Below are positions 32,095-41,838 of a stretch of 64,000 nt of DNA, piece after piece. Under the pieces are notes generated by a model, which had not been told where the DNA came from, did not search any database, and worked only from the letters and a program-made list of their open reading frames with translations. Numbering within the stretch: position 1 is the first letter of the stretch; every line of letters begins with the position of its first letter. Source of the stretch: Pseudomonadota bacterium. Lineage in GTDB: Bacteria > Pseudomonadota > Gammaproteobacteria > Burkholderiales > SG8-39. The stretch covers positions 64,824 through 128,823 of the forward strand of contig JBFMFX010000002.1 in the NCBI GenBank assembly GCA_040752005.1, written 5' to 3'. The position numbers and the translations under genes are program-made.

Positions 32095-32993
32095 GCAAGC
32101 TGCCGGTCGCCTTTGCCCTGCTCGGCCCCACGGCGAGCGGAAAATCCGGGTTCGCGCTCGCGCTCGCCGCCGAGTTTCCGGTCGAGATCGTCAGCGTGGA
32201 CTCGGCGCAGGTGTACCGCGGCATGGATGTGGGCACCGGCAAGCCCTCGGCGGCCGAGCGCTCGCGGGTACCGCATCATCTGATTGACGTCGCCGAGCCG
32301 ACCGAGCGCTATTCGGCCGGGCGTTTCCGCGCCGATGCGATCGCGGCGGTCGAGGAGATCGTCGCGCGCGGCCGCATCCCCCTGCTCGTCGGCGGCACGA
32401 TGCTCTATTACCGCGCGCTCGCGGTCGGGCTGGACGAGCTGCCCGCCGCCGACCCGGCGATCCGGGCCGGGATCGAGGCCGAGGCGCGCCGCCGCGGCTG
32501 GCCGGCGCTGCACGCCGAGCTCGCCCGTGCCGACCCGCAGGCGGCGGCACGCATCGCGCCGCGCGACGCGCAGCGCATCCAGCGCGCGCTGGAAGTGATC
32601 CGCGCCACCGGCGCGCCCCTCTCCGGCCTGCAGCGGGGCGCGGCGCCCCGGCTGCCGTTCGAGCTGCGCGGCTTCGCCCTGATTCCGGCCGACCGCGCCG
32701 AGCTGCACCGCAGGATCGCCGCGCGCTTCGACGCGATGCTCGCCGCCGGATTGGTCGAGGAGTTGCGCGAGCTGCGGCGCCGCTACGCGCTCGATCCTTC
32801 GCTGCCGAGCATGCGCGCGGTCGGCTACCGCCAGGCGTGGCGCTACCTCGAAGGGGAAATCAGCGCCGAGGAGCTGCGCGAGCAGGCGATCGCGGCGACG
32901 CGCCAGCTCGCCAAGCGCCAGCTCACCTGGCTGCGCGCGATGAAGGATCTCGCGCCGGCCGACGAGCTGCGGCGCGCGCTCAGTCGAGCGTGA
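32091..32993 (+). CDS. miaA: tRNA dimethylallyltransferase
   Basis: P-loop [10 protein letters not shown] and [17 protein letters not shown]. The TTG start at 32091 overlaps the mutL TGA (GTTGAGC). Confidence 0.92.
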
Positions 32994-33930
32994 GACCGAC
33001 GGCGCGCGCCGCGCGCCCGTACGCCTCGAGCTGCTCGATCACGAAGGCGCGCAGCGCCTCGGGGCTGGAAGCGCGCGGCTCGAAGGCGATCCTGCCGAAC
33101 GCCTCCTTGACGTCGGCGCGCGCGAGCACCACCGCGAGTTCGCGCCCGACGCGCTCGACGACCTCGCGCGGCAGCTTCGCCGGCCCGAACAATCCTCCCC
33201 AGGGCACGATCGGCACCGGGGCGAGCCCCGCTTCCGGTAGCGTCGGCGCATCCGGCAGCAGCGGACTGCGGCTCGGGAGCATCGTCGCGAGCACGCGGAT
33301 CTTGCCCTCCTTCACCTGAGGGGCGAGCGTGCCGGGCGTGGCGAAGGCGAAGTGCACGCGGCCGGCGAGCAGATCCACCGACAGCGGCGCGTCGCCCTTG
33401 TAGGGCACATGCACCATGTCGAGCTTGTTCGCTGCGGCGAAGAGCGCGGTGGCGAGGATGCTGGTCGCGTTCCCGGTGCCGTAATTGATGCGTCCCGGGT
33501 TGGCACGCGCATAGCCGACGAGGTCCTGGATCGTGCGCACCGGCAGGTCGGCGTGCGAGAACACGAAAAAGCCGAAGATGCCGACGAGCGAAATCGGCGT
33601 GAAGTCGTTGACCGGGTCGTACGGCGGCACCTTCTTCGCCGCCGGCGCGAAGGACATGCCGGTCGCCGTGCCGTAGTACAGCGTGTAGCCGTCGGGCGGG
33701 GCGCGGCGCACCGCCTCGGAGGCGATGATGCCCTCGGCGCCGGGCCGCGTCTCGATGATGATCGGCTGGCCGAGCCGCTCGCCGAGCGGTTGGGCGAAGA
33801 TGCGCGCGCCGAGCTCGGCCGCCCCGCCTGGCGGGAACGGGACGATGAGCCGCACGGGTTTGTTCGGATACTGCGCCTGCGCCGCCGTGCAGGCGACCAG
33901 CGCCGCGATCGCCGCGAAGAGCCGTTTCAT
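32980..33930 (-). CDS. Bug-family (TctC-like) tripartite tricarboxylate transporter substrate-binding protein
   Basis: Signal peptide followed by [16 protein letters not shown]...PGAEG...PDGYTL, the typical Bug family pattern. No adjacent tctAB. Confidence 0.88.
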
Positions 33931-33934
33931 GGCG

Positions 33935-34894
33935 CTACTCCGGTTGCACGCCGGCAGCGCGCAGGATCGAGCGATACGCTCCCATCTGCGCCCTGGTGAA
34001 CGAGGCGAGCTCTTCCGGCGTGGAAGGGGTCATGTGGAACGCTTGCTTGTCCATCGCGGCGACGACGTCGGGCCGCTTCATCGCATCGTGGAACTCCTTG
34101 TTCAGGCGCGCGACGATCTCCCTGGGCAGCTTCGCCGGCCCGAACAGCCCCGCCCACGACACGACCGAGTACTGCGGCAGGCCCACCTCGGCCATCGTCG
34201 GCACGTCCGGAAGGAGGCTGGACCGCGTCTTCAGATTGGTCGCCAGCGCACGCAGCTTGCCGTCCTTGAGGTGCGGCAGCCCGGTGGTCGGCGTCGCCCA
34301 CATCACCTGCACGCGCCCGGCGACGAGGTCGGTGATGCCCTGCGGCTCGCCCTTGTAAGGCACGTGCGTCATCTCGATGCCGGCGAGCGAGTTCATCTGC
34401 GCGAACGAGACGATACCGGTGGTGTTGCCGGTCGCGTAGTTGAGCTTGCCGGGGTTCGCCTTGGCGTACGCGACCAGCTCCTTGAACGTCCCGATCGGCA
34501 CGCCGGCGTTGACGTAGAGGAAGAACGTGTAGCGGCCGATGTCGGTGATTGGAGTGAAGTCGGCCACCGGATCGTAGGGTGGATTCTTCTTCATCGCCGG
34601 CACCGCCGCCATTGGACTGTTGGTCGCCATGAGCAGCGTGTAGCCGTCGGGCGCGGCCTTCGCGACCTCGGCTGCGGCGATCGCGCCGTCGGCGCCCGCC
34701 TTGTTGTCCACGACGACCGGCTGGCCGACGGCGGCCGATACCGAGGCGCCGAGGATGCGCGTGATGGTGTCGGTCGCCGAACCCGCGGGAAACGGCACGA
34801 CGATCCGTATCGGTTTCGCCGGATACTGCGCCGCCGCACGAATCGCGACCACCGCGAGAGCGATCGCCACCGCGAGAACGAACCCCTTTCGCAT
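33935..34894 (-). CDS. Bug-family (TctC-like) substrate-binding protein, second copy
   Basis: YPAKPIRIVVPFPAGSATD...PDGYTLL. It has its own TATAAT-like element and an AAAAAGGGGGGAG Shine-Dalgarno in the 69-nt upstream gap. Confidence 0.88.
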   Translation of the reverse strand: MRKGFVLAVAIALAVVAIRAAAQYPAKPIRIVVPFPAGSATDTITRILGASVSAAVGQPVVVDNKAGADGAIAAAEVAKAAPDGYTLLMATNSPMAAVPAMKKNPPYDPVADFTPITDIGRYTFFLYVNAGVPIGTFKELVAYAKANPGKLNYATGNTTGIVSFAQMNSLAGIEMTHVPYKGEPQGITDLVAGRVQVMWATPTTGLPHLKDGKLRALATNLKTRSSLLPDVPTMAEVGLPQYSVVSWAGLFGPAKLPREIVARLNKEFHDAMKRPDVVAAMDKQAFHMTPSTPEELASFTRAQMGAYRSILRAAGVQPE

Positions 34895-34963
34895 ACTCCC
34901 CCCCTTTTTGGAGATGGTCGCGGCGATTATAGAACGCGCCCCGCCGCCGCGGCGCCCCCGCGC

Positions 34964-36205
34964 CTACGCAAGGAGCGGGCAGCCGGCGGGGCTCGCCGTT
35001 TTTTTCTTTGCGAGGATTCGGGCCGAATACTTCTCCAGATAGTGCGCGATCGTCTCGACGCGGATCTTCACCGACCCGGCGGGCTTGGTGGAATCGAGGT
35101 CCTGGAAGGAGAAAAAGAGCGTGCCCGACGATTCGACGATTTTCTGCACCGGCGAGTAGGTCGGCTGGTCCATGCCGCATTCGTAGCTGGACAGCCGCAC
35201 CACGCAGGCGATCCACGGCATGCGCGCGGCGAACTTCGCTCCCCACAGGATCTCATTGGTGTTCGCGCTGTAAGACGAAGGCCACACGTCGGAGATGTCG
35301 AACGGCGACTTGATCCAGCCCGCCTCGAGGTCCGGGCCGAACATCCAGGCAAGCAGATCGTCGTCGGTCGGCAGGTACTGCGCCCAGAGCACCGGGTAGC
35401 CGCAGGCCTGCAGATCCCCTTCGATCTCGTGCCCGATGCCCGGGTCCATGTGGTAAGGACGCGCGAGCACCAGCAGGCAAGGCCGCTCCTCGCGCGCGCA
35501 CCACTGGAGAATCTCGCGCGCCTTGCGGCGCAGGCTCGCGCCGTAGGCGGCCAGCGCCCGGTAGCCCTCCTCGACCGCTCGTTGGGTCTCCTCGGCCGTC
35601 AGTCCCGGAATGGCCTCGCGCAGGCCCTCGTAAAGCTGCCGGGCGGCGAGCGGCGGGTCGTCGAGCGAAACGAGCGGCGCGCAGTAGCGCACGCCCAGTT
35701 CCGCGAAGGTGTCGCGCTCCTTCAGAAACCCCGCCTTGATGTTCTCCGGCGCCGCCATCACGCGCGGGCAGGCGATCGAGGCGACGACATGGCCGGCAAG
35801 GCACGAGGGCAGCGTCGCGATCATCGGCGAGAGCAGGATGTCGATTTTCCGCTTGCGGTTGGCGAGCAGCTCGCCGTAATGGCCGGAGATGCATTTCACC
35901 GGGTAGCAGCAGTCCACGGTGCCGCGGCCCCTGGCGAAGCGGCGCGCCTGCTCCTCCGAGGTGTCGGAGGAGAATTCGATGCGCCGCGCCTCGATGCCGA
36001 GCGCTTCCAGGAAAGCGATCCAGAACTGGTGCGTGGACCAGAGGTTGAGCACGCGCGGGATGCCGACGCGCAGCTGCGCGCGCGCCTTCGTGCCCGGGCC
36101 GCTCGCGCGCGCGGGCGCCTCGCCCGAGCCGTCGCGGTCAAACCGCAGCCCGGGAACGCCGAAAGGCGCCTTCGCGAACCAGCTCAGCAACGTTGGGACA
36201 GGCAC
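34964..36205 (-). CDS. Acyl-CoA dehydratase activase-related protein (DUF2229-like)
   Basis: VGIPRVLNLWSTHQFW..., CYPVK..., ARPYHMDPG..., SSYECGMD: the pattern I recognise from the C-terminal region of large CoA-substrate-specific enzyme activase proteins. Overlaps the upstream gene by 68 nt if the ATG at 36205 is used. Confidence 0.75.
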   Translation of the reverse strand: MPVPTLLSWFAKAPFGVPGLRFDRDGSGEAPARASGPGTKARAQLRVGIPRVLNLWSTHQFWIAFLEALGIEARRIEFSSDTSEEQARRFARGRGTVDCCYPVKCISGHYGELLANRKRKIDILLSPMIATLPSCLAGHVVASIACPRVMAAPENIKAGFLKERDTFAELGVRYCAPLVSLDDPPLAARQLYEGLREAIPGLTAEETQRAVEEGYRALAAYGASLRRKAREILQWCAREERPCLLVLARPYHMDPGIGHEIEGDLQACGYPVLWAQYLPTDDDLLAWMFGPDLEAGWIKSPFDISDVWPSSYSANTNEILWGAKFAARMPWIACVVRLSSYECGMDQPTYSPVQKIVESSGTLFFSFQDLDSTKPAGSVKIRVETIAHYLEKYSARILAKKKTASPAGCPLLA

Positions 36206-38303
36206 GTTTCGCTTCCTCCAGCTTCTGCTTCACCGCCTTCATCTCGTTCACGTCTTCGAGCAGACCCTTGGGGCAGGAGTTGCCGCTGATCACCCGTTCC
36301 CAGCCCTCGGCGAGCGGCACCTTGCTCCAGGGGCGTCCCCTGCCTCCGGGCATGCGCACGTCGATGAACGTGCGCTTGCAGTTGACCGCGCACCATTGGC
36401 AGGTCGTGTGCTCGTTCGTCGTGCTGGTGTATTCGAGCGACTCGATCAGCTCGTAGCCGCGGAAGCGGCTGCGCTCGCCCTTCTGCGCCCACTCGAGCGC
36501 GCACAGCGCCGCGCCGATCGCGCCGGCTTCGCCCGAATACGGGTGGACCACGATCTCGGCATCCGGAACCTTCGAGCGGATGAAGTCCACCTGCGCCTTG
36601 ACCACCGCGAGATTGCGGTGCGTGCCGCCCTGCAGCACGAACTTGCGGCCGGCGGCGGCGAGGTTCTGCAGCTGCCCGGCGTACACCCAGACGTTGAGCG
36701 GCAGCACCGCCGCGAGCGAGGCCATGATCTCCTCGCGCGACCAGCCTTTTCTCTGCTGGTTGACGATGTCGGACTGCAGGAACACGCCGCAGCCCATGGC
36801 GAGCGCCGGGATCGCGCGCGCCCGGAACGCAAGCTCGGCGTACTGCTCGAGCGGCACGCCGTAGCGCTCGGCCACCCCCTGCAGGAACGCGCCGTTGCCG
36901 GAGGAGCACTGCGAGTTCAGGCGGAAGTCCGCCACCGTGCCCTGGCGCAGGATCATGATCTTGACGTCGCAGCCGCCGACGTCGCAGATCACCTCGGCGT
37001 CCGGAAAGTAGTGCAGCGCGGCGGTGGCGTGCGCCACCGTCTCGACGATCGCGACGTCCGCACCGACGATGTCCTTGAGCAGGTCCTTGCCGTAGCCGGT
37101 GATGCCGAGCGCGCCGATCCTCTCGAAGCCGGCGCCGCGGATCTCGCGCAGAATGGCCTTCGCGTCCTCGATCGGATTGCCGTTCGAGGGCACATAGCAG
37201 CTCGCCAGCAGCTCGCGCTCGGGCGAGAGCACCACCGCCTTCGCCGTGGTGCTGCCGAAATCGCAGCCGACGAGCGCCGGTTGATCGCGCGCCCCGGTGC
37301 GCGGGTTCGCCGCCGCGACGCGCGGCCCACCGTAGCAGCGGATGAAGTGCTCGAGCTCCTTCGGGTCCTTCACCAGGCCCTGCGCGCCCTCGCGTGCCTT
37401 GTGCTCGTGCTGCCCTTCCTCTATCCACCAGCGCAGCTTCGCGGTGCCGGCGTACACGCCGACGCCCGCGGGCTCGCCGCGGCCGATCTCGACGCACCCG
37501 AGGCAGGCATAGTAGAGCGCGTCCTCCGGTACCTCGATGAGCGCGTCCGGGTCGGCGCCGGGCGGCAGCGCAACGTTGCGCTCGACCCACAGCTTGCGCA
37601 GGTGGTGGCGCCACGCTTGCTGCAGGCCGCGATAAAACAGGTTCGGCCCGCCCAGCAGCAGCACGTGCGGCCGCGGCGTGTTGCCCTTGGTGAGCGTGGC
37701 CAGATTCTGACAGACGACCGCCTCGTACAGGCTGGCGATGATCTCCTCGACCGGCACGCCCGATTTCACCAGCGTGTTGGCGTCGGCCTCGGCGAAGATG
37801 CCGCACTTGGAGCTCACCTTGTGCAGAGTCAGGCCCGAGTACGGCATGCGCGCGAGCCGCTCGGGGGGGATCTGCAGCTTGCGCGCGGTCTTCTCGATGA
37901 ACGTGCCGGTGCCCCCGCTGCAGGCCGACTGCATGAACACCTGCTTCGCCTTCCCGGCACCGCCCGCGGTGAAGAACAGCGTCTTCATGTCCTCGCCGCC
38001 GATCTCCGAGACGAAGCTCACTTCCGGGTGGAGCTTTTCGACCGCGGCGGACACCGCGACCACCTCCTGCACGAACTTGCCGCCGACGAGCGGCGCGAGC
38101 AGCCCGGCGCCCGAGCCGGTGAGGAGGATGCGGTCGCGACCGGCCCGCAGCCCGCACTCGGCTTCGAGACGGGCGAGGAAATCGAGCACCACCTCCGCCT
38201 GCCGCGTGTCGTGGCGCCGGTAGTCGCGCCACAGGACGGTGTCCCCGTCGGCGAAAAGCGCTTTGACGGTGGTCGAGCCGACGTCGAGCCCGACGATCCT
38301 CAT
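36138..38303 (-). CDS. Double BcrAD/BadFG/HgdC-type ATPase (acyl-CoA dehydratase activase-like)
   Basis: Two ASKHA ATPase repeats (MRIVGLDVGSTTVKA... and LVGCDFGSTTAKAV...). Each repeat has the cluster-ligand Cys pair (QSACSGGTGTFIE/SSKCGIFAEAD and NSQCSSGNGAFLQ/AMGCGVFLQSD). A C-terminal Cys motif CQWCAVNC...CPKG is also present. Confidence 0.85.
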   Translation of the reverse strand: MRIVGLDVGSTTVKALFADGDTVLWRDYRRHDTRQAEVVLDFLARLEAECGLRAGRDRILLTGSGAGLLAPLVGGKFVQEVVAVSAAVEKLHPEVSFVSEIGGEDMKTLFFTAGGAGKAKQVFMQSACSGGTGTFIEKTARKLQIPPERLARMPYSGLTLHKVSSKCGIFAEADANTLVKSGVPVEEIIASLYEAVVCQNLATLTKGNTPRPHVLLLGGPNLFYRGLQQAWRHHLRKLWVERNVALPPGADPDALIEVPEDALYYACLGCVEIGRGEPAGVGVYAGTAKLRWWIEEGQHEHKAREGAQGLVKDPKELEHFIRCYGGPRVAAANPRTGARDQPALVGCDFGSTTAKAVVLSPERELLASCYVPSNGNPIEDAKAILREIRGAGFERIGALGITGYGKDLLKDIVGADVAIVETVAHATAALHYFPDAEVICDVGGCDVKIMILRQGTVADFRLNSQCSSGNGAFLQGVAERYGVPLEQYAELAFRARAIPALAMGCGVFLQSDIVNQQRKGWSREEIMASLAAVLPLNVWVYAGQLQNLAAAGRKFVLQGGTHRNLAVVKAQVDFIRSKVPDAEIVVHPYSGEAGAIGAALCALEWAQKGERSRFRGYELIESLEYTSTTNEHTTCQWCAVNCKRTFIDVRMPGGRGRPWSKVPLAEGWERVISGNSCPKGLLEDVNEMKAVKQKLEEAKRACPNVAELVREGAFRRSRAAV

Positions 38304-39934
38304 CGGCGCCGCCCCGCCGCGACGTGCAGCGCGAGGTTCGCCGCGGTGCCCGCCACTCCGTAGTGCGGCAGCCGCCAGGTCGCGCGCCGCAGCTCCGGCC
38401 GCTCGGCGATCGCGGCCCGCAGATCTTCGGGCGTGAGGCCGGTCCGTTCGAGCACCTCCTCGAACTCGCGCTGCGCGCGCCGCTTCGCCTCCGTGAGAAT
38501 CATCTGGCAGCGCGAGAGCGCGTGCACCTCGGCGTCGCCCTTGATCTCGAGCGGCGCGTACAGCAGGTCCGGGTACTTGCCAAGCACCGCGGCCATCGCG
38601 CCGATGCTCATCGTGTTCGGCATGCACGAGTAGGGCGAGAGCTCGCAGGTCATGTGCGCCTTCCTGCCGTGGTAGGCCCAGAGCGCCTTGCCGATCAGCA
38701 TGTCGCCCTCGCCGCCGTTCAGGCGGCTGTGATAGAAGGGCGCAGCCAGGCGCCGCAGCGCGTCCTGCTCGGGCAGCTCGCGCGGAACCTCGCCCAAAGC
38801 CCGGCGCATGCGGTCGTAGGTCCAGCGCAGCAGCCGCTGGCCGAGGCGTACCGCGGCGAGCTTCGCACGCGCCTGGCGGTCAATGCCGATGTGGTCCTCG
38901 AAGTCCTGCCCGGCGAAGCGCAGCAGGTAGTCGAGCCAGATCGTGATCGCCGCCGGGTACACTTCCGCCCCCTCGGCCTCCAGCCAGCGGTGGATGTTGT
39001 AGTTGGGTTCGCCTTCCACCGTCTGCAGATAGAACTCGCCGGTGATCTTCACGACCGGCTTGACACGCGTGCGATCCACTTCGACCCGATCGTAGAGCGC
39101 CCTCACTTCGCGCATCGCGCGCACGAAGTAGCCGGTGGCGAGATGCCAGAGCGCCGCACTCCACTTGCCGCGGCGCACCGGCCGGCGGCGGAACGCTTCG
39201 TACAGCAGTTCCACCGCCGCGCGCGTGGCGCGCTCCGTTTCCCCCGCCTTCACTTCGAAGGGCCGCGTGCGGTATTCCATGTCCTGCACGACGTCGGTGA
39301 GCACGATCGCCCAAATCGCGCCGAGGATGAACGGCAGGTTGAGCTCGAGCCCACCGCCTTCGCGCGCGCCCTGGTCGAGGTTCGCCTGATCGAGCAGGAA
39401 CATGCGGAACGATTCCAGTCCGGTGTTCTTCAGCGCCAGCTCGTAGCTCTGGTGATACTGGCCGAAGCGGCAAGCACCGCAGGCGCCGGCGGTGACGTAG
39501 ATGAAATTCTTCGCCACCTCCTCGGGACTCGAGCGCTTCGCCTCGGCGCGCAGGAAATTGGCGAGATTGCCGGTGGTGAAGCTCGTCGGGCAGCACTGCC
39601 CGATGTCGGCCACCTCGCGCCCGGTGAGGAGGTCCTCGCGCGTGGCGACCGGCAGCACCCGCACGCGGTAGCCGAGGTTCTCCATCGCGCCCTGGATCAC
39701 GCGCTCGGCGCGCCAGTGCAGGCCGCCGAAGAGCACCGTGACCTTGTCGCGCTCCTCGCGCGTGAAGGGTCGCGGCCGGTACGCGCGGTAGTGCCCGCCC
39801 GCCTGCGAGGTGCGGTCCGGCGGCGGCACCGTTCGCACCTGCGCAGTCGGCGGAGCGCCGGCCGCGACGACGCGCACGTTCCGCAGCGAGCGGAAGGACA
39901 CGGACGGACGCGATTCGGACGTCGTCGGTTCCAT
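38300..39934 (-). CDS. 2-hydroxyacyl-CoA dehydratase-like / activase-related protein
   Basis: 544 aa from ATG 39934, with GQCCPTSF, TAGACGACRFGQY, ITGEFY and SPYSCMPN motifs. The stop overlaps the next start (ATGA). Confidence 0.7.
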   Translation of the reverse strand: MEPTTSESRPSVSFRSLRNVRVVAAGAPPTAQVRTVPPPDRTSQAGGHYRAYRPRPFTREERDKVTVLFGGLHWRAERVIQGAMENLGYRVRVLPVATREDLLTGREVADIGQCCPTSFTTGNLANFLRAEAKRSSPEEVAKNFIYVTAGACGACRFGQYHQSYELALKNTGLESFRMFLLDQANLDQGAREGGGLELNLPFILGAIWAIVLTDVVQDMEYRTRPFEVKAGETERATRAAVELLYEAFRRRPVRRGKWSAALWHLATGYFVRAMREVRALYDRVEVDRTRVKPVVKITGEFYLQTVEGEPNYNIHRWLEAEGAEVYPAAITIWLDYLLRFAGQDFEDHIGIDRQARAKLAAVRLGQRLLRWTYDRMRRALGEVPRELPEQDALRRLAAPFYHSRLNGGEGDMLIGKALWAYHGRKAHMTCELSPYSCMPNTMSIGAMAAVLGKYPDLLYAPLEIKGDAEVHALSRCQMILTEAKRRAQREFEEVLERTGLTPEDLRAAIAERPELRRATWRLPHYGVAGTAANLALHVAAGRRR

Positions 39935-40110
39935 GGCTTCTCCTTCTTGTCCGGACCCGGAGCAAGACCTCCCCGAGGCGACGGAATTCTTACTCCGGAG
40001 AAAGCTGCAGACAATGCCGGCCCGAAAGGCGCGGTTTTGACCCCATTGCACGCATGGGCATACGCGCGTACACGCAAGCAGTTACGCGCGCGGCGTTCTC
40101 GGCCAGCGCC

Positions 40111-41838
40111 CTAAAGACCCCGCGCGACCCCCTCGCGCCGCGGATCGGCGCCGCCGCGCCAGCCTCCCGGTGCGCGCTCGACGATGTACAGGCCGCTTGT
40201 GAGATCGGCGAGGCGCACTTCGTGACCTCGGGCGGCGAGCGGCGGACCGAGCAGCTCATACGCCGTGCCGCGCTCAAGCTCGGTCGGGCCGTTGCGGCTG
40301 CCGGCGTGCGGCAGCGCCGCGGCGCTCTGGGCATCGAGCCCCCAGTCGAGCATCGCTACGAGCGCCTGCGCGACGTAGTTGACGATCGCCGGGCCGCCCG
40401 GCGAGCCGAGCACCGCGCGCAGCCGGCCTTCGGCGCTGAACACGAGCGTCGGCGACATCGCGCTCCTCGGGCGCTTTCCGGGCTCGACGCGGTTGGCGAC
40501 CGGGCGGCCGGCGGATTCCGGCACGAAGGCGAAATCGGTGAGCTGGTTGTTGAGCAGAAAGCCGCGCACCATGATGCGCGCGCCGAACGCACTCTCGATC
40601 GTCGTCGTCATCGCGACCGCGTCGCCGCGCGCGTCCACGATCGAGATGTGGCTCGTACCGGAAAGCGCCGCCTCGGGCGAGTCGGCGTGCGCCTGCGCGC
40701 CAGGCGGCGCGCCCGGCGCGGCGCGACCCATCGAGCGCTCGCCGATGAGTCTTGCGCGCCCGGCGAGATACGCGGCATCCAGCAGCCCGGCGACCGGAAC
40801 GGGAACGAAGTCCGGATCGGCGAGATGGCGCGCGCGATCGGCATACGCCAGGCGGCCGGCCTCGGCAAAGAGATGGACCGCCTCGGCCGAGTTGGGCGCC
40901 GCTACGGCAAAGTCGGTGCGCGCGAGAATGCCGAGGATCTGGAGCACGGTGACGCCTCCGCCCGGCGGGCCCATGCTGCAGACGCGGTGCGCGCGATAGG
41001 CAAGGCAGACCGGCTCGCGCTCGAGCGCCCGATAGCGCGCGAGGTCCTCCAGCGTCATGTCTCCCGGCCGTCTGTGGTCCCGCACCGCGCGCACGATGTC
41101 GGCGGCGATTTCGCCGCGGTAGAACGCGCCGGCGCCGCCGCTCGCGATACGCCGCAGCGTCGCAGCGTACTCCGGGTTCGCGATGCGCTCGCCGACCGGC
41201 CGCGGCCGGTCGTCGGCGCCGTAAAAGAGCGCACGCGCGGCGCGGTCGTTGCGCAGCGCGCTTTCGCGCTCGAGGAGCCCGTAGAGCCTCGGGGTCATCG
41301 CAAAGCCCTGTTCGGCGAGCCGGATCGCGGAGGCGAAGAGCCTCGCCCACGGCAGGCGCCCGTGGCGTCGGTGCGCGAGTTCGAGCATCCGCAGCACGCC
41401 GGGCACGCCGACCGCCGCGCCGCTTGCCGCGGCTTCGGCAAAGGCAAGCGGCCTGCCGGAGGAGTCGAGAAAGCGATCGGCGCGCGCAGCCGCCGGAGCG
41501 GTCTCGCGCCCGTCGTAGGCCCGCAGTCGCCGCTCGGCGCGCGACCAGTGCAACAGGAACGCGCCGCCGCCGATTCCCGAGGATTGCGGCTCGGCGAGCC
41601 CCAGCACCATCTGCACCGCGACCGCGGCATCGAGCGCGCTGCCGCCGGCGCGCAGGATTTCCAGCCCCGCCTCGACCGCGAGCGGATGCGCCGCCGCCAC
41701 CATCGCTCGGCGCGCAAACGCCGGCTCGCGCGGCTGCATACCGCCCGGGCCTCCGGGCCGCGCCTGCGCGGCGGCGAGCCCGGCCGCCAGAACAAAAAGG
41801 GCAGCCGGAGCTGCCCTTTTCCAGCAAGCGGCGAACAT
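40111..41838 (-). CDS. ggt: Gamma-glutamyltransferase
   Basis: Signal peptide, autoprocessing site GTSHISIVD, and the SPGGPAI motif. 575 aa from ATG 41838; the 1189-aa tracked ORF is a frame run-on. Confidence 0.92.
   Translation of the reverse strand: MFAACWKRAAPAALFVLAAGLAAAQARPGGPGGMQPREPAFARRAMVAAAHPLAVEAGLEILRAGGSALDAAVAVQMVLGLAEPQSSGIGGGAFLLHWSRAERRLRAYDGRETAPAAARADRFLDSSGRPLAFAEAAASGAAVGVPGVLRMLELAHRRHGRLPWARLFASAIRLAEQGFAMTPRLYGLLERESALRNDRAARALFYGADDRPRPVGERIANPEYAATLRRIASGGAGAFYRGEIAADIVRAVRDHRRPGDMTLEDLARYRALEREPVCLAYRAHRVCSMGPPGGGVTVLQILGILARTDFAVAAPNSAEAVHLFAEAGRLAYADRARHLADPDFVPVPVAGLLDAAYLAGRARLIGERSMGRAAPGAPPGAQAHADSPEAALSGTSHISIVDARGDAVAMTTTIESAFGARIMVRGFLLNNQLTDFAFVPESAGRPVANRVEPGKRPRSAMSPTLVFSAEGRLRAVLGSPGGPAIVNYVAQALVAMLDWGLDAQSAAALPHAGSRNGPTELERGTAYELLGPPLAARGHEVRLADLTSGLYIVERAPGGWRGGADPRREGVARGL

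Follow-up and report, generated by a model that had tools for sequence, protein, structure and literature searches.

The locus considered here raises the question of whether three overlapping genes, which bear the marks of an ATP-driven activase, encode the energizing part of an enzyme whose catalytic subunits lie elsewhere or the enzyme as a whole, and what its substrate would be. The genes occupy positions 34964-39934 of the window, i.e., of a 64,000-nucleotide (nt) stretch of contig JBFMFX010000002.1 (GenBank assembly GCA_040752005.1) from an uncultured member of Burkholderiales; they are co-oriented, all lie on the minus strand, fill this interval and are named A, B and C in the order of transcription. 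In a preliminary description of this DNA they were taken for an activase module only, the canonical HgdA/HgdB or BcrB/BcrC partners being "not evident". Our comparisons lead to a different picture. Homology of A and C to the catalytic modules Red2 and Red1 of a fused PlsA-type protein, together with the predicted fold of A, indicates that A and C are themselves these partners, being divergent equivalents of HgdA/HgdB or BcrB/BcrC, and therefore that the locus would encode a whole enzyme and not an activase module. According to sequence and model comparison, A, B and C make up one complete, predicted three-subunit enzyme of the benzoyl-CoA reductase/2-hydroxyacyl-CoA dehydratase (BCR/HAD) superfamily, belonging to its PlsA/PlsR-Ger branch, with the genes cut into three and, as the alignments indicate, circularly permuted: Red2 comes first, then Act1-Act2, then Red1.

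The product of gene B matched the Pfam family BcrAD_BadFG (PF01869) in two stretches at E 3e-66, in agreement with the two tandem BcrAD/BadFG repeats read from it earlier, and scored 220 bits with the NCBIfam model TIGR00241, "acyl-CoA dehydratase activase" (cut-off 125). Among PDB sequences it matched HgdC (1hux), MbdQ (9gai_D), HadI (4eht) and DCCP-R (7yyl_E, E 1e-17). Judging from these family models, B is an electron-transfer activase of the HgdC/BcrAD type with the ASKHA ATPase fold. The paired cysteines of each repeat had been proposed to correspond to the ligands of the bridging cluster in HgdC, and a joint alignment with HgdC bears this out, as Cys128 and Cys167 of repeat 1 and Cys466 and Cys505 of repeat 2 fall into the columns of HgdC Cys127 and Cys166, which are also occupied by Cys in BcrA encoded by the same genome and in each repeat of the PlsA homologue from Listeria. 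The further CxxCxxxC...C motif pointed out in the preliminary description is formed by Cys635, Cys638, Cys642 and Cys677 near the C-terminus. Across 48 homologues, among them PlsA-type proteins, all eight cysteines, four of the activase repeats and four C-terminal ones, show 98-100% conservation. By analogy of these residues with those of HgdC, B would form a pseudo-dimer bridging one [4Fe-4S] cluster via Cys128, Cys167, Cys466 and Cys505, while its C-terminal four-cysteine site probably binds a further metal centre positioned between the activase and the catalytic core.

Gene A gave no match in Pfam even at E ≤ 10 (HGD-D, PF06050, included) and none in NCBIfam at E ≤ 0.01 (double_cubane, BcrB and BcrC models included); thus, the "dehydratase-like" character ascribed to it earlier finds no counterpart among sequence models and shows up only in the predicted fold. 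The AlphaFold2 model of A, based on a 123-row alignment, had a predicted local distance difference test score (pLDDT) of 83 and a predicted template modeling score (pTM) of 0.83, residues 1-48 being disordered and variable. In a Foldseek comparison with PDB the five best matches of this model were DCCP structures (7yyl, 7yzm, 6eno; probability 1.0; 7yyl_A at E 7e-5), followed by BzdNO (8s02_B) and MbdON, with TM-scores of only 0.35-0.48. Hence, A as modeled has the catalytic-subunit fold of DCCP and benzoyl-CoA reductases. Its Cys114, Cys155 and Cys437 are invariant in 70 sequences and Cys152 is present in most of them, so that these residues likely act as [4Fe-4S] ligands. Gene C, previously described as DUF2229-like, matched PF09989 (DUF2229) at E 6e-40, and its Cys100, Cys146 and Cys343 are invariant in 96 sequences; folding of the single sequence, without an alignment, reached a pLDDT of 36. 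Searches of PDB sequences with A and with C using phmmer returned nothing at E ≤ 10, and the 42-sequence profile of the A family returned nothing meaningful. The comparison of A with C by BLASTP, as well as that of the A profile with C and with BcrC of the same genome by hhalign, was not significant; a weak alignment of A with C (E 0.11, not significant) pairs the CC-x-P motifs of both proteins.

The relation of the three products to one another becomes apparent from comparison with PlsA-type proteins. PlsA/PlsR, by which diacyl lipids are turned into plasmalogens (Jackson, 2021, as cited in PMC9702350 and PMC12838417), and Ger, which yields 1-alkyl glycerol ethers (PMC13159169), each enable E. 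coli to synthesize ether lipids (PMC13159169; PMC9702350; PMC12838417); the remark of the preliminary description that fused proteins of about 1400 amino acids (aa) with these domains have no known substrate is therefore outdated. The references used here were the Listeria monocytogenes protein WP_014600632.1 (1475 aa), which is an annotated homologue and not an experimentally verified enzyme, proteins of Collinsella aerofaciens (1593 aa, with a TetR gene upstream) and Haliovirga abyssi (1449 aa), and, as a two-gene reference, the pair from Brevibacillus laterosporus (1168 and 545 aa); the verified C. perfringens PlsA/PlsR, E. faecalis, T. maritima and D. alkenivorans sequences were left out of the comparisons. 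In BLASTP, B aligned with residues 5-633 of the Listeria protein (31% identity, E 4e-93), C with residues 670-1000 (23%, E 1e-25) and A with residues 994-1409 (23%, E 3e-21). Together B, C and A cover the Listeria protein collinearly from end to end, Act1, Act2, Red1 and Red2 all being present. The 14 universally conserved cysteines of A, B and C are all common to the PlsA-type proteins of Listeria, Collinsella and Haliovirga, and about 45% of the Red-domain columns that are invariant in the group of the window are kept in PlsA-type proteins as well, many of them polar or charged (R156, Y160, D214, E227, E409 and R475 of A; K104, H109, Y251, H252, D254 and H259 of C). The reference sequences were taken from PLSDB "plasmid" records (NZ_CP030101.1, NZ_LR134399.1, NZ_OY725717.1, NZ_CP011076.1), several of which are chromosomes or pieces of chromosomes (e.g., a 2.9-Mb record of Listeria), and this mislabeling is a caveat for plasmid statistics.

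In respect of architecture, the PlsA/PlsR system (CPE1195/CPE1194 of C. perfringens; a single gene in E. faecalis, L. cremoris and B. longum) has the same four modules as the locus of the window, i.e., Act1, Act2, Red1 (DUF2229) and Red2, the same activase cysteines, CxxCxxxC...C site and three cysteines per Red domain, and is collinear with it over the whole length. It differs in being encoded by one gene or by plsA-plsR, whereas in the window the modules are divided over three genes that run Red2, Act-Act, Red1; PlsR comprises 420 aa against 544 aa of A; the Listeria and Collinsella proteins contain two DUF2229 stretches, whereas A has no second DUF2229 match; and the clade of the window possesses extra cysteines of its own. 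With Ger (T. maritima Tmari_0479, D. alkenivorans SHJ90043; PMC13159169), a stand-alone enzyme, the locus shares the BBD core (two PF01869 stretches and PF09989), and the "Ger-type" proteins of a sponge-symbiont preprint (10.64898/2026.06.23.733905) resemble it in lacking a second full DUF2229. However, Ger is a single polypeptide of strict anaerobes, while the module of the window consists of three genes, and the small HGD-D matches reported for the C-terminal part of Ger are absent from A. The closest relatives are the two-gene BBD+R systems of Brevibacillus laterosporus and of Bryobacteraceae/Candidatus Solibacter: the Brevibacillus proteins are 42, 39 and 34% identical to B, C and A, respectively, and the BBD+R Red2 shares the CGxCRFG motif with A. 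In these systems the order is Act-Act-Red1 followed by Red2, in contrast to the window, where Red2 comes first and Act-Act and Red1 are separate genes.

These results bear directly on the possibility that B belongs to an orphan activase module serving a catalytic partner encoded elsewhere, for instance the benzoyl-CoA reductase of the same genome. Such a view draws on the fact that B alone carries recognizable activase models, A having no family model, and on the presence of a canonical benzoyl-CoA reductase: in this 3.26-Mb, 98% complete genome, bcrCBAD, oah and korAB were recognized by equivalog models above their cut-offs. The bcr cluster (genome G000, contig C23, L011:8600-18100) is of the Thauera-type class I; BcrC, BcrB and BcrA exceed the NCBIfam equivalog cut-offs, a second BcrAD_BadFG match, presumably bcrD, follows, and genes of 6-oxocyclohex-1-ene-1-carbonyl-CoA hydratase (Oah) and a 2-oxoacid:ferredoxin oxidoreductase lie beside them. 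That cluster, however, comprises BcrA/BcrD ATPases of its own, A and C correspond by homology to Red2 and Red1 of fused PlsA-type proteins, A has the fold of a catalytic subunit, and A, B and C occur together in all loci compared and are fused in proteins P0159 and P0183. We therefore consider an orphan activase very improbable. The same genes indicate that the host is able to run oxygen-sensitive, ferredoxin-dependent chemistry; it is probably facultatively anaerobic and a degrader of aromatic compounds.

A second possibility arises from the fold of A. Given that DCCP takes the top five places in the structural comparison of A and that B is similar to the DCCP reductase in sequence, the enzyme could reduce small molecules in the manner of DCCP (acetylene, azide, a hydrazine-type or another substrate), in detoxification or another redox role. 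The [8Fe-9S] cluster of DCCP is reportedly held by six cysteines of one subunit, as Jeoung and Dobbek are said to have described in 2018. With three invariant cysteines and one near-invariant in A and three in C, the subunits of the window do not have such a set and look HgdA/HgdB-like; moreover, the TM-scores are modest, and the sequence homology of A is direct to PlsA-type proteins and not detectable to DCCP. This alternative thus appears improbable to us. In a broader sense, HgdC/HgdAB, HadI/HadBC, BcrABCD, BzdNOPQ, MbdONPQ and DCCP/DCCP-R all follow the same logic, an ATP-driven "archerase" feeding a two-subunit Fe-S core, from which the locus of the window departs in that two activase repeats are fused in tandem and carry an additional four-cysteine site, its catalytic subunits match no HGD-D model and no genes of CoA-ester pathways are attached to it.

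Relatives of A are numerous: more than 2000 were found in metagenomes, and pattern-confirmed relatives occurred at 418 places in data with one genome per species. Comparisons of the A-B-C (ABC) locus were performed with the best 80 loci, which show 63-88% identity and come from at least eight phyla, and the order A-B-C is kept in every one of them that is long enough. The carriers include Burkholderiales, Gallionella, Steroidobacteraceae, Methylomirabilota/Rokubacteria, Acidobacteriota, Verrucomicrobiia and Actinomycetota, as well as Dormibacterota, Binatia, Acetobacteraceae (Caldovatus sediminis, Falsiroseomonas), Serpentinimonas barnesii H1 and Hydrogenophaga. The module is at the same time rare and patchy, being found in 2 of the 25 genomes of the genus of the window and in 4 of the 401 of its order. 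Two members of the same order are merely 50-56% identical, compared with 68-70% across phyla, which points to horizontal spread of the module.

In a tree obtained by a quick IQ-TREE search, the ABC clade was monophyletic (support 100) on a long stem of 2.0 changes per site and nested inside the two-gene BBD+R radiation, the fused protein P0159 being its sister; three PlsA-type sequences were very distant, on a very long branch. Cysteines confined to the ABC clade are Cys115, Cys430 and Cys476 in A, Cys267, Cys270, Cys347 and Cys601 in B, and Cys99, Cys105, Cys236, Cys243 and Cys409 in C, with Cys334 in part of it, all of these being absent from BBD+R and PlsA-type relatives; two of the extra cysteines stand next to the first cluster ligand of the Red domains, giving a CC doublet in each.

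The preliminary description rightly stated that the same domains occur fused elsewhere and are split and reordered here, and both orders are indeed met with among fused proteins: Act-Act-Red1-Red2 in P0183 and Red2-Act-Act-Red1, i.e., that of the window, in P0159. An exhaustive search yielded mainly stand-alone Red2 proteins of about 520-620 aa, plus fusions, among them P0180, in which Red1 is joined to Red2, and about 20 clusters (P0167, P0283-P0300), in which Red2 is fused to a GltD-like NADPH oxidoreductase (Fer4_20, Pyr_redox_2) with two ferredoxin motifs. At three loci looked up (L178-L180), the gene of the Red2-GltD fusion adjoins a BBD gene of 1223 aa. The fusion is likely a built-in NAD(P)H electron-input route of the enzyme family, and such fusions with ferredoxin motifs support a redox role with external electron input. 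When the Red2 part of P0183 served as query, 38 fused proteins were retrieved; none of them was a verified Ger or PlsA, and the only one with a named organism came from a Myxococcales metagenome-assembled genome. In a second set of 80 metagenome loci, seeded with the Brevibacillus partner, the order Act-Red1-Red2 was observed in 53 of the 53 loci showing all three parts; a TetR gene was located nearby in 13 of the 80, and TetR genes are known near the pls genes of facultative anaerobes (PMC9702350).

As to the reaction, ether-lipid formation is the most likely function of A-B-C, a reading in which our confidence is evenly balanced. By analogy with PlsA/PlsR and Ger, the substrate would most likely be the acyl ester carbonyl of a membrane glycerolipid, and the product a 1-O-alkyl or alk-1-enyl ether lipid formed at low oxygen. 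A low-potential ferredoxin or flavodoxin would reduce the [4Fe-4S] cluster held between both repeats of B; ATP hydrolysis by B would lower the potential of the electron, which would be passed on, probably via the C-terminal four-cysteine site of B, to the C-A heterodimer, each subunit of which would hold an iron-sulfur cluster with three cysteines; there, a carbonyl bound at the Red cluster would be reduced through a ketyl-type radical.

The genomic surroundings of the 80 loci give clues in two directions. No gene besides A-B-C is conserved across them, and neither a CoA ligase, a CoA transferase, a thiolase nor another pathway gene is conserved beside the module; in these neighbourhoods the orthologues are not linked to a separate characterized dehydratase, and the module is self-contained. 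The dispensability of dedicated partner genes fits an enzyme acting on a ubiquitous component of the cell. About 11 loci, mostly of Steroidobacteraceae, are accompanied by genes of an OlsE-like FA_hydroxylase and a short FA_desaturase, and about 12, mostly of Methylomirabilota, have a di-iron protein gene located 5 nt upstream, accompanied by DUF6901 and a peroxiredoxin of the AhpC type; the di-iron protein (282 aa, ExxH twice) has no Pfam model and a faint likeness to acyl-ACP desaturase. The loci with such lipid-enzyme or di-iron neighbours include L027, L036, L038, L044, L049, L055, L061, L062, L065 and L071, and L069, L073, L076, L077, L082, L086 and L087. The self-contained module and these occasional lipid-modifying neighbours favour a ubiquitous lipid substrate.

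The other direction is indicated by transporter genes. At 13 Burkholderiales loci (L014, L015, L017, L018, L021, L023, L028, L030, L033, L035, L040, L050 and L052) a tripartite ATP-independent periplasmic (TRAP) transporter, TatT-DctP-DctQM with fused DctQM, lies directly upstream of A on the same strand, at a distance of 14-130 nt. In the window itself, C is followed immediately by two genes of the TctC/Bug family (Pfam, E 2e-66 and 1e-52), as was described earlier. Accordingly, the same activase and Red1/Red2 machinery might act on a substrate outside the membrane, e.g., an imported hydrophobic or other organic carboxylic acid or ester, which would be reduced or dehydrated. The long stem of the ABC clade and its own extra cysteines could mark such a change of function, and since PlsA and Ger are not distinguishable by sequence (PMC13274423), substrate assignments based on homology are weak. 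The TRAP genes, however, occur in a single related group only, and a search for TatT in the genome of the window found none. Comparison of the gene order HppA-GGT-TatT-DctP-DctQM-A-B-C in L021 with HppA-GGT-A-B-C-Bug-Bug in the window indicates that the lineage of the latter lost the TRAP transporter or never gained it. Likewise, among the 80 loci a TctC pair stands immediately behind C in just two, L013 and L024, the closest ones to the window (in L014 a TctC gene lies about 2.4 kb downstream), and is not adjacent to the module in the others; because this adjacency is limited to the nearest relatives, the pair tells little about the substrate, contrary to the suggestion of the preliminary description. 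The absence of conserved CoA-dependent pathway genes and the Red-domain columns shared with PlsA-type proteins also speak against a soluble substrate. Owing to the transporter neighbours this explanation stays alive, and we regard it as possible, if on the whole unlikely.

Several considerations weigh against ether-lipid formation. Orthology with an experimentally verified enzyme was not established: with 23-31% identity and a very long separate branch, the relation of the locus to PlsA-type proteins is, as far as sequences tell, one of homology and not of orthology, and the Listeria protein used for comparison is itself an annotated homologue. Many carriers belong to lineages usually deemed aerobic, while verified PlsA and Ger function mainly without oxygen (PMC13159169; PMC12838417). 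The TRAP transporter and the two Bug proteins of the window would be easier to reconcile with an imported organic acid than with a membrane lipid. The lipid-enzyme neighbours belong to a small number of related lineages and do not count as independent observations.

A connection with brGDGTs (branched glycerol dialkyl glycerol tetraethers) is provided by the BBD+R relatives. Halamka et al. proposed Acid_0922 and Acid_0921 of S. usitatus as the ether-forming enzyme in brGDGT synthesis (PMC10087280); these proteins comprise 1188 aa with 30% identity to PlsA and 589 aa with 21% identity to PlsR, respectively (PMC10087280 and its supplement), and by their sizes and published identities we infer that they belong to the BBD+R clade. 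Among Acidobacteriota, this type of Red2 was found in 20 of the 301 genomes. The relatives of a 587-aa acidobacterial Red2 are 85-96% identical to it and 582-609 aa long, the few named ones being Bryobacteraceae, and one of the 90%-identity clusters includes a protein of Candidatus Solibacter sp. that is 36% identical to A over the full length (E 5e-130). Considering these facts jointly, we tentatively suggest, while thinking it doubtful that all parts hold together, that ABC and its BBD+R parent might be the ether-bond-forming enzyme of facultative and microaerobic bacteria living in soil and groundwater (Burkholderiales, Gallionellaceae, Steroidobacteraceae, Methylomirabilota, Acidobacteriota and others), that the extra cysteines would adapt it to low, non-zero oxygen, that its alkyl glycerol ether products would include precursors of brGDGTs, and that genome screens for Ger/PlsA would undercount the producers, since no domain model covers A and the enzyme is distributed over separate genes.

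The arrangement of the locus is given in Table 1; the product lengths and both gene overlaps described previously were reproduced. Gene A starts with ATG, the AGGAG site being placed 6 nt before it, and its stop overlaps the start of B as ATGA. Gene C starts with GTG, with GGAGGA 8 nt upstream, inside the coding sequence of B, and overlaps B by 68 nt (36138-36205) in the +1 frame; in related loci this overlap amounts to about 65-71 nt by tblastn coordinates. It resembles a scar left by the splitting of a once-fused BBD gene and implies a dual-coding constraint. A programmed frameshift joining B and C was considered and rejected, because C has its own GTG with the strong GGAGGA site. The leader, which comprises the proximal ~75 nt before A, is almost identical to those of the two closest loci, L013 and L024, and it is the sequence farther upstream that diverges; the palindrome and repeat TACGCGCGTA (40061-40090) was rejected as a conserved operator, since it is missing in both of them. 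In the gap separating C from the first Bug gene, a scan of 32800-40400 for promoters and terminators detected neither a promoter-like site nor a terminator on the minus strand; these 69 nt (34895-34963) contain a perfect TATAAT with no recognizable -35 element. Upstream of A lie a gamma-glutamyltranspeptidase gene and an H+-pyrophosphatase-like open reading frame, the latter named by eye.

Table 1. Features of the A-B-C locus in coordinates of the window.
Feature	Position	Strand	Description
Gene A	38300..39934	(-)	544 aa; predicted Red2 catalytic subunit, PlsR-like; open reading frame with translation
Gene B	36138..38303	(-)	721 aa; predicted tandem activase Act1-Act2, HgdC/BcrAD type
Gene C	34964..36205	(-)	413 aa; predicted Red1 catalytic subunit, DUF2229
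Leader before gene A	39935..40010	(-)	about 75 nt, conserved, including AGGAG ribosome-binding site

What is new here, as judged from sequence comparison, is a split, permuted and unusually conserved clade of the PlsA/PlsR-Ger superfamily, the fused relatives of which were already known. Bacterial ether lipids, among them brGDGTs used as proxies of past temperature and pH, have no settled biosynthetic enzyme or list of producers. PlsA/PlsR and Ger account for the ether bonds in anaerobes, and the ABC clade is a distinct, self-contained relative of theirs, strongly conserved across phyla in lineages that dominate soils, aquifers and sediments, and nested in the group that holds Solibacter proteins of the type proposed for the ether bonds of brGDGTs. 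If ether lipids are indeed made by this enzyme, the set of candidate producers would widen, and the failure of domain-based screens to detect them would be explained, since neither Pfam nor NCBIfam offers a model for subunit A; if they are not, the locus would represent a widespread ATP-driven low-potential reductase of another chemistry.

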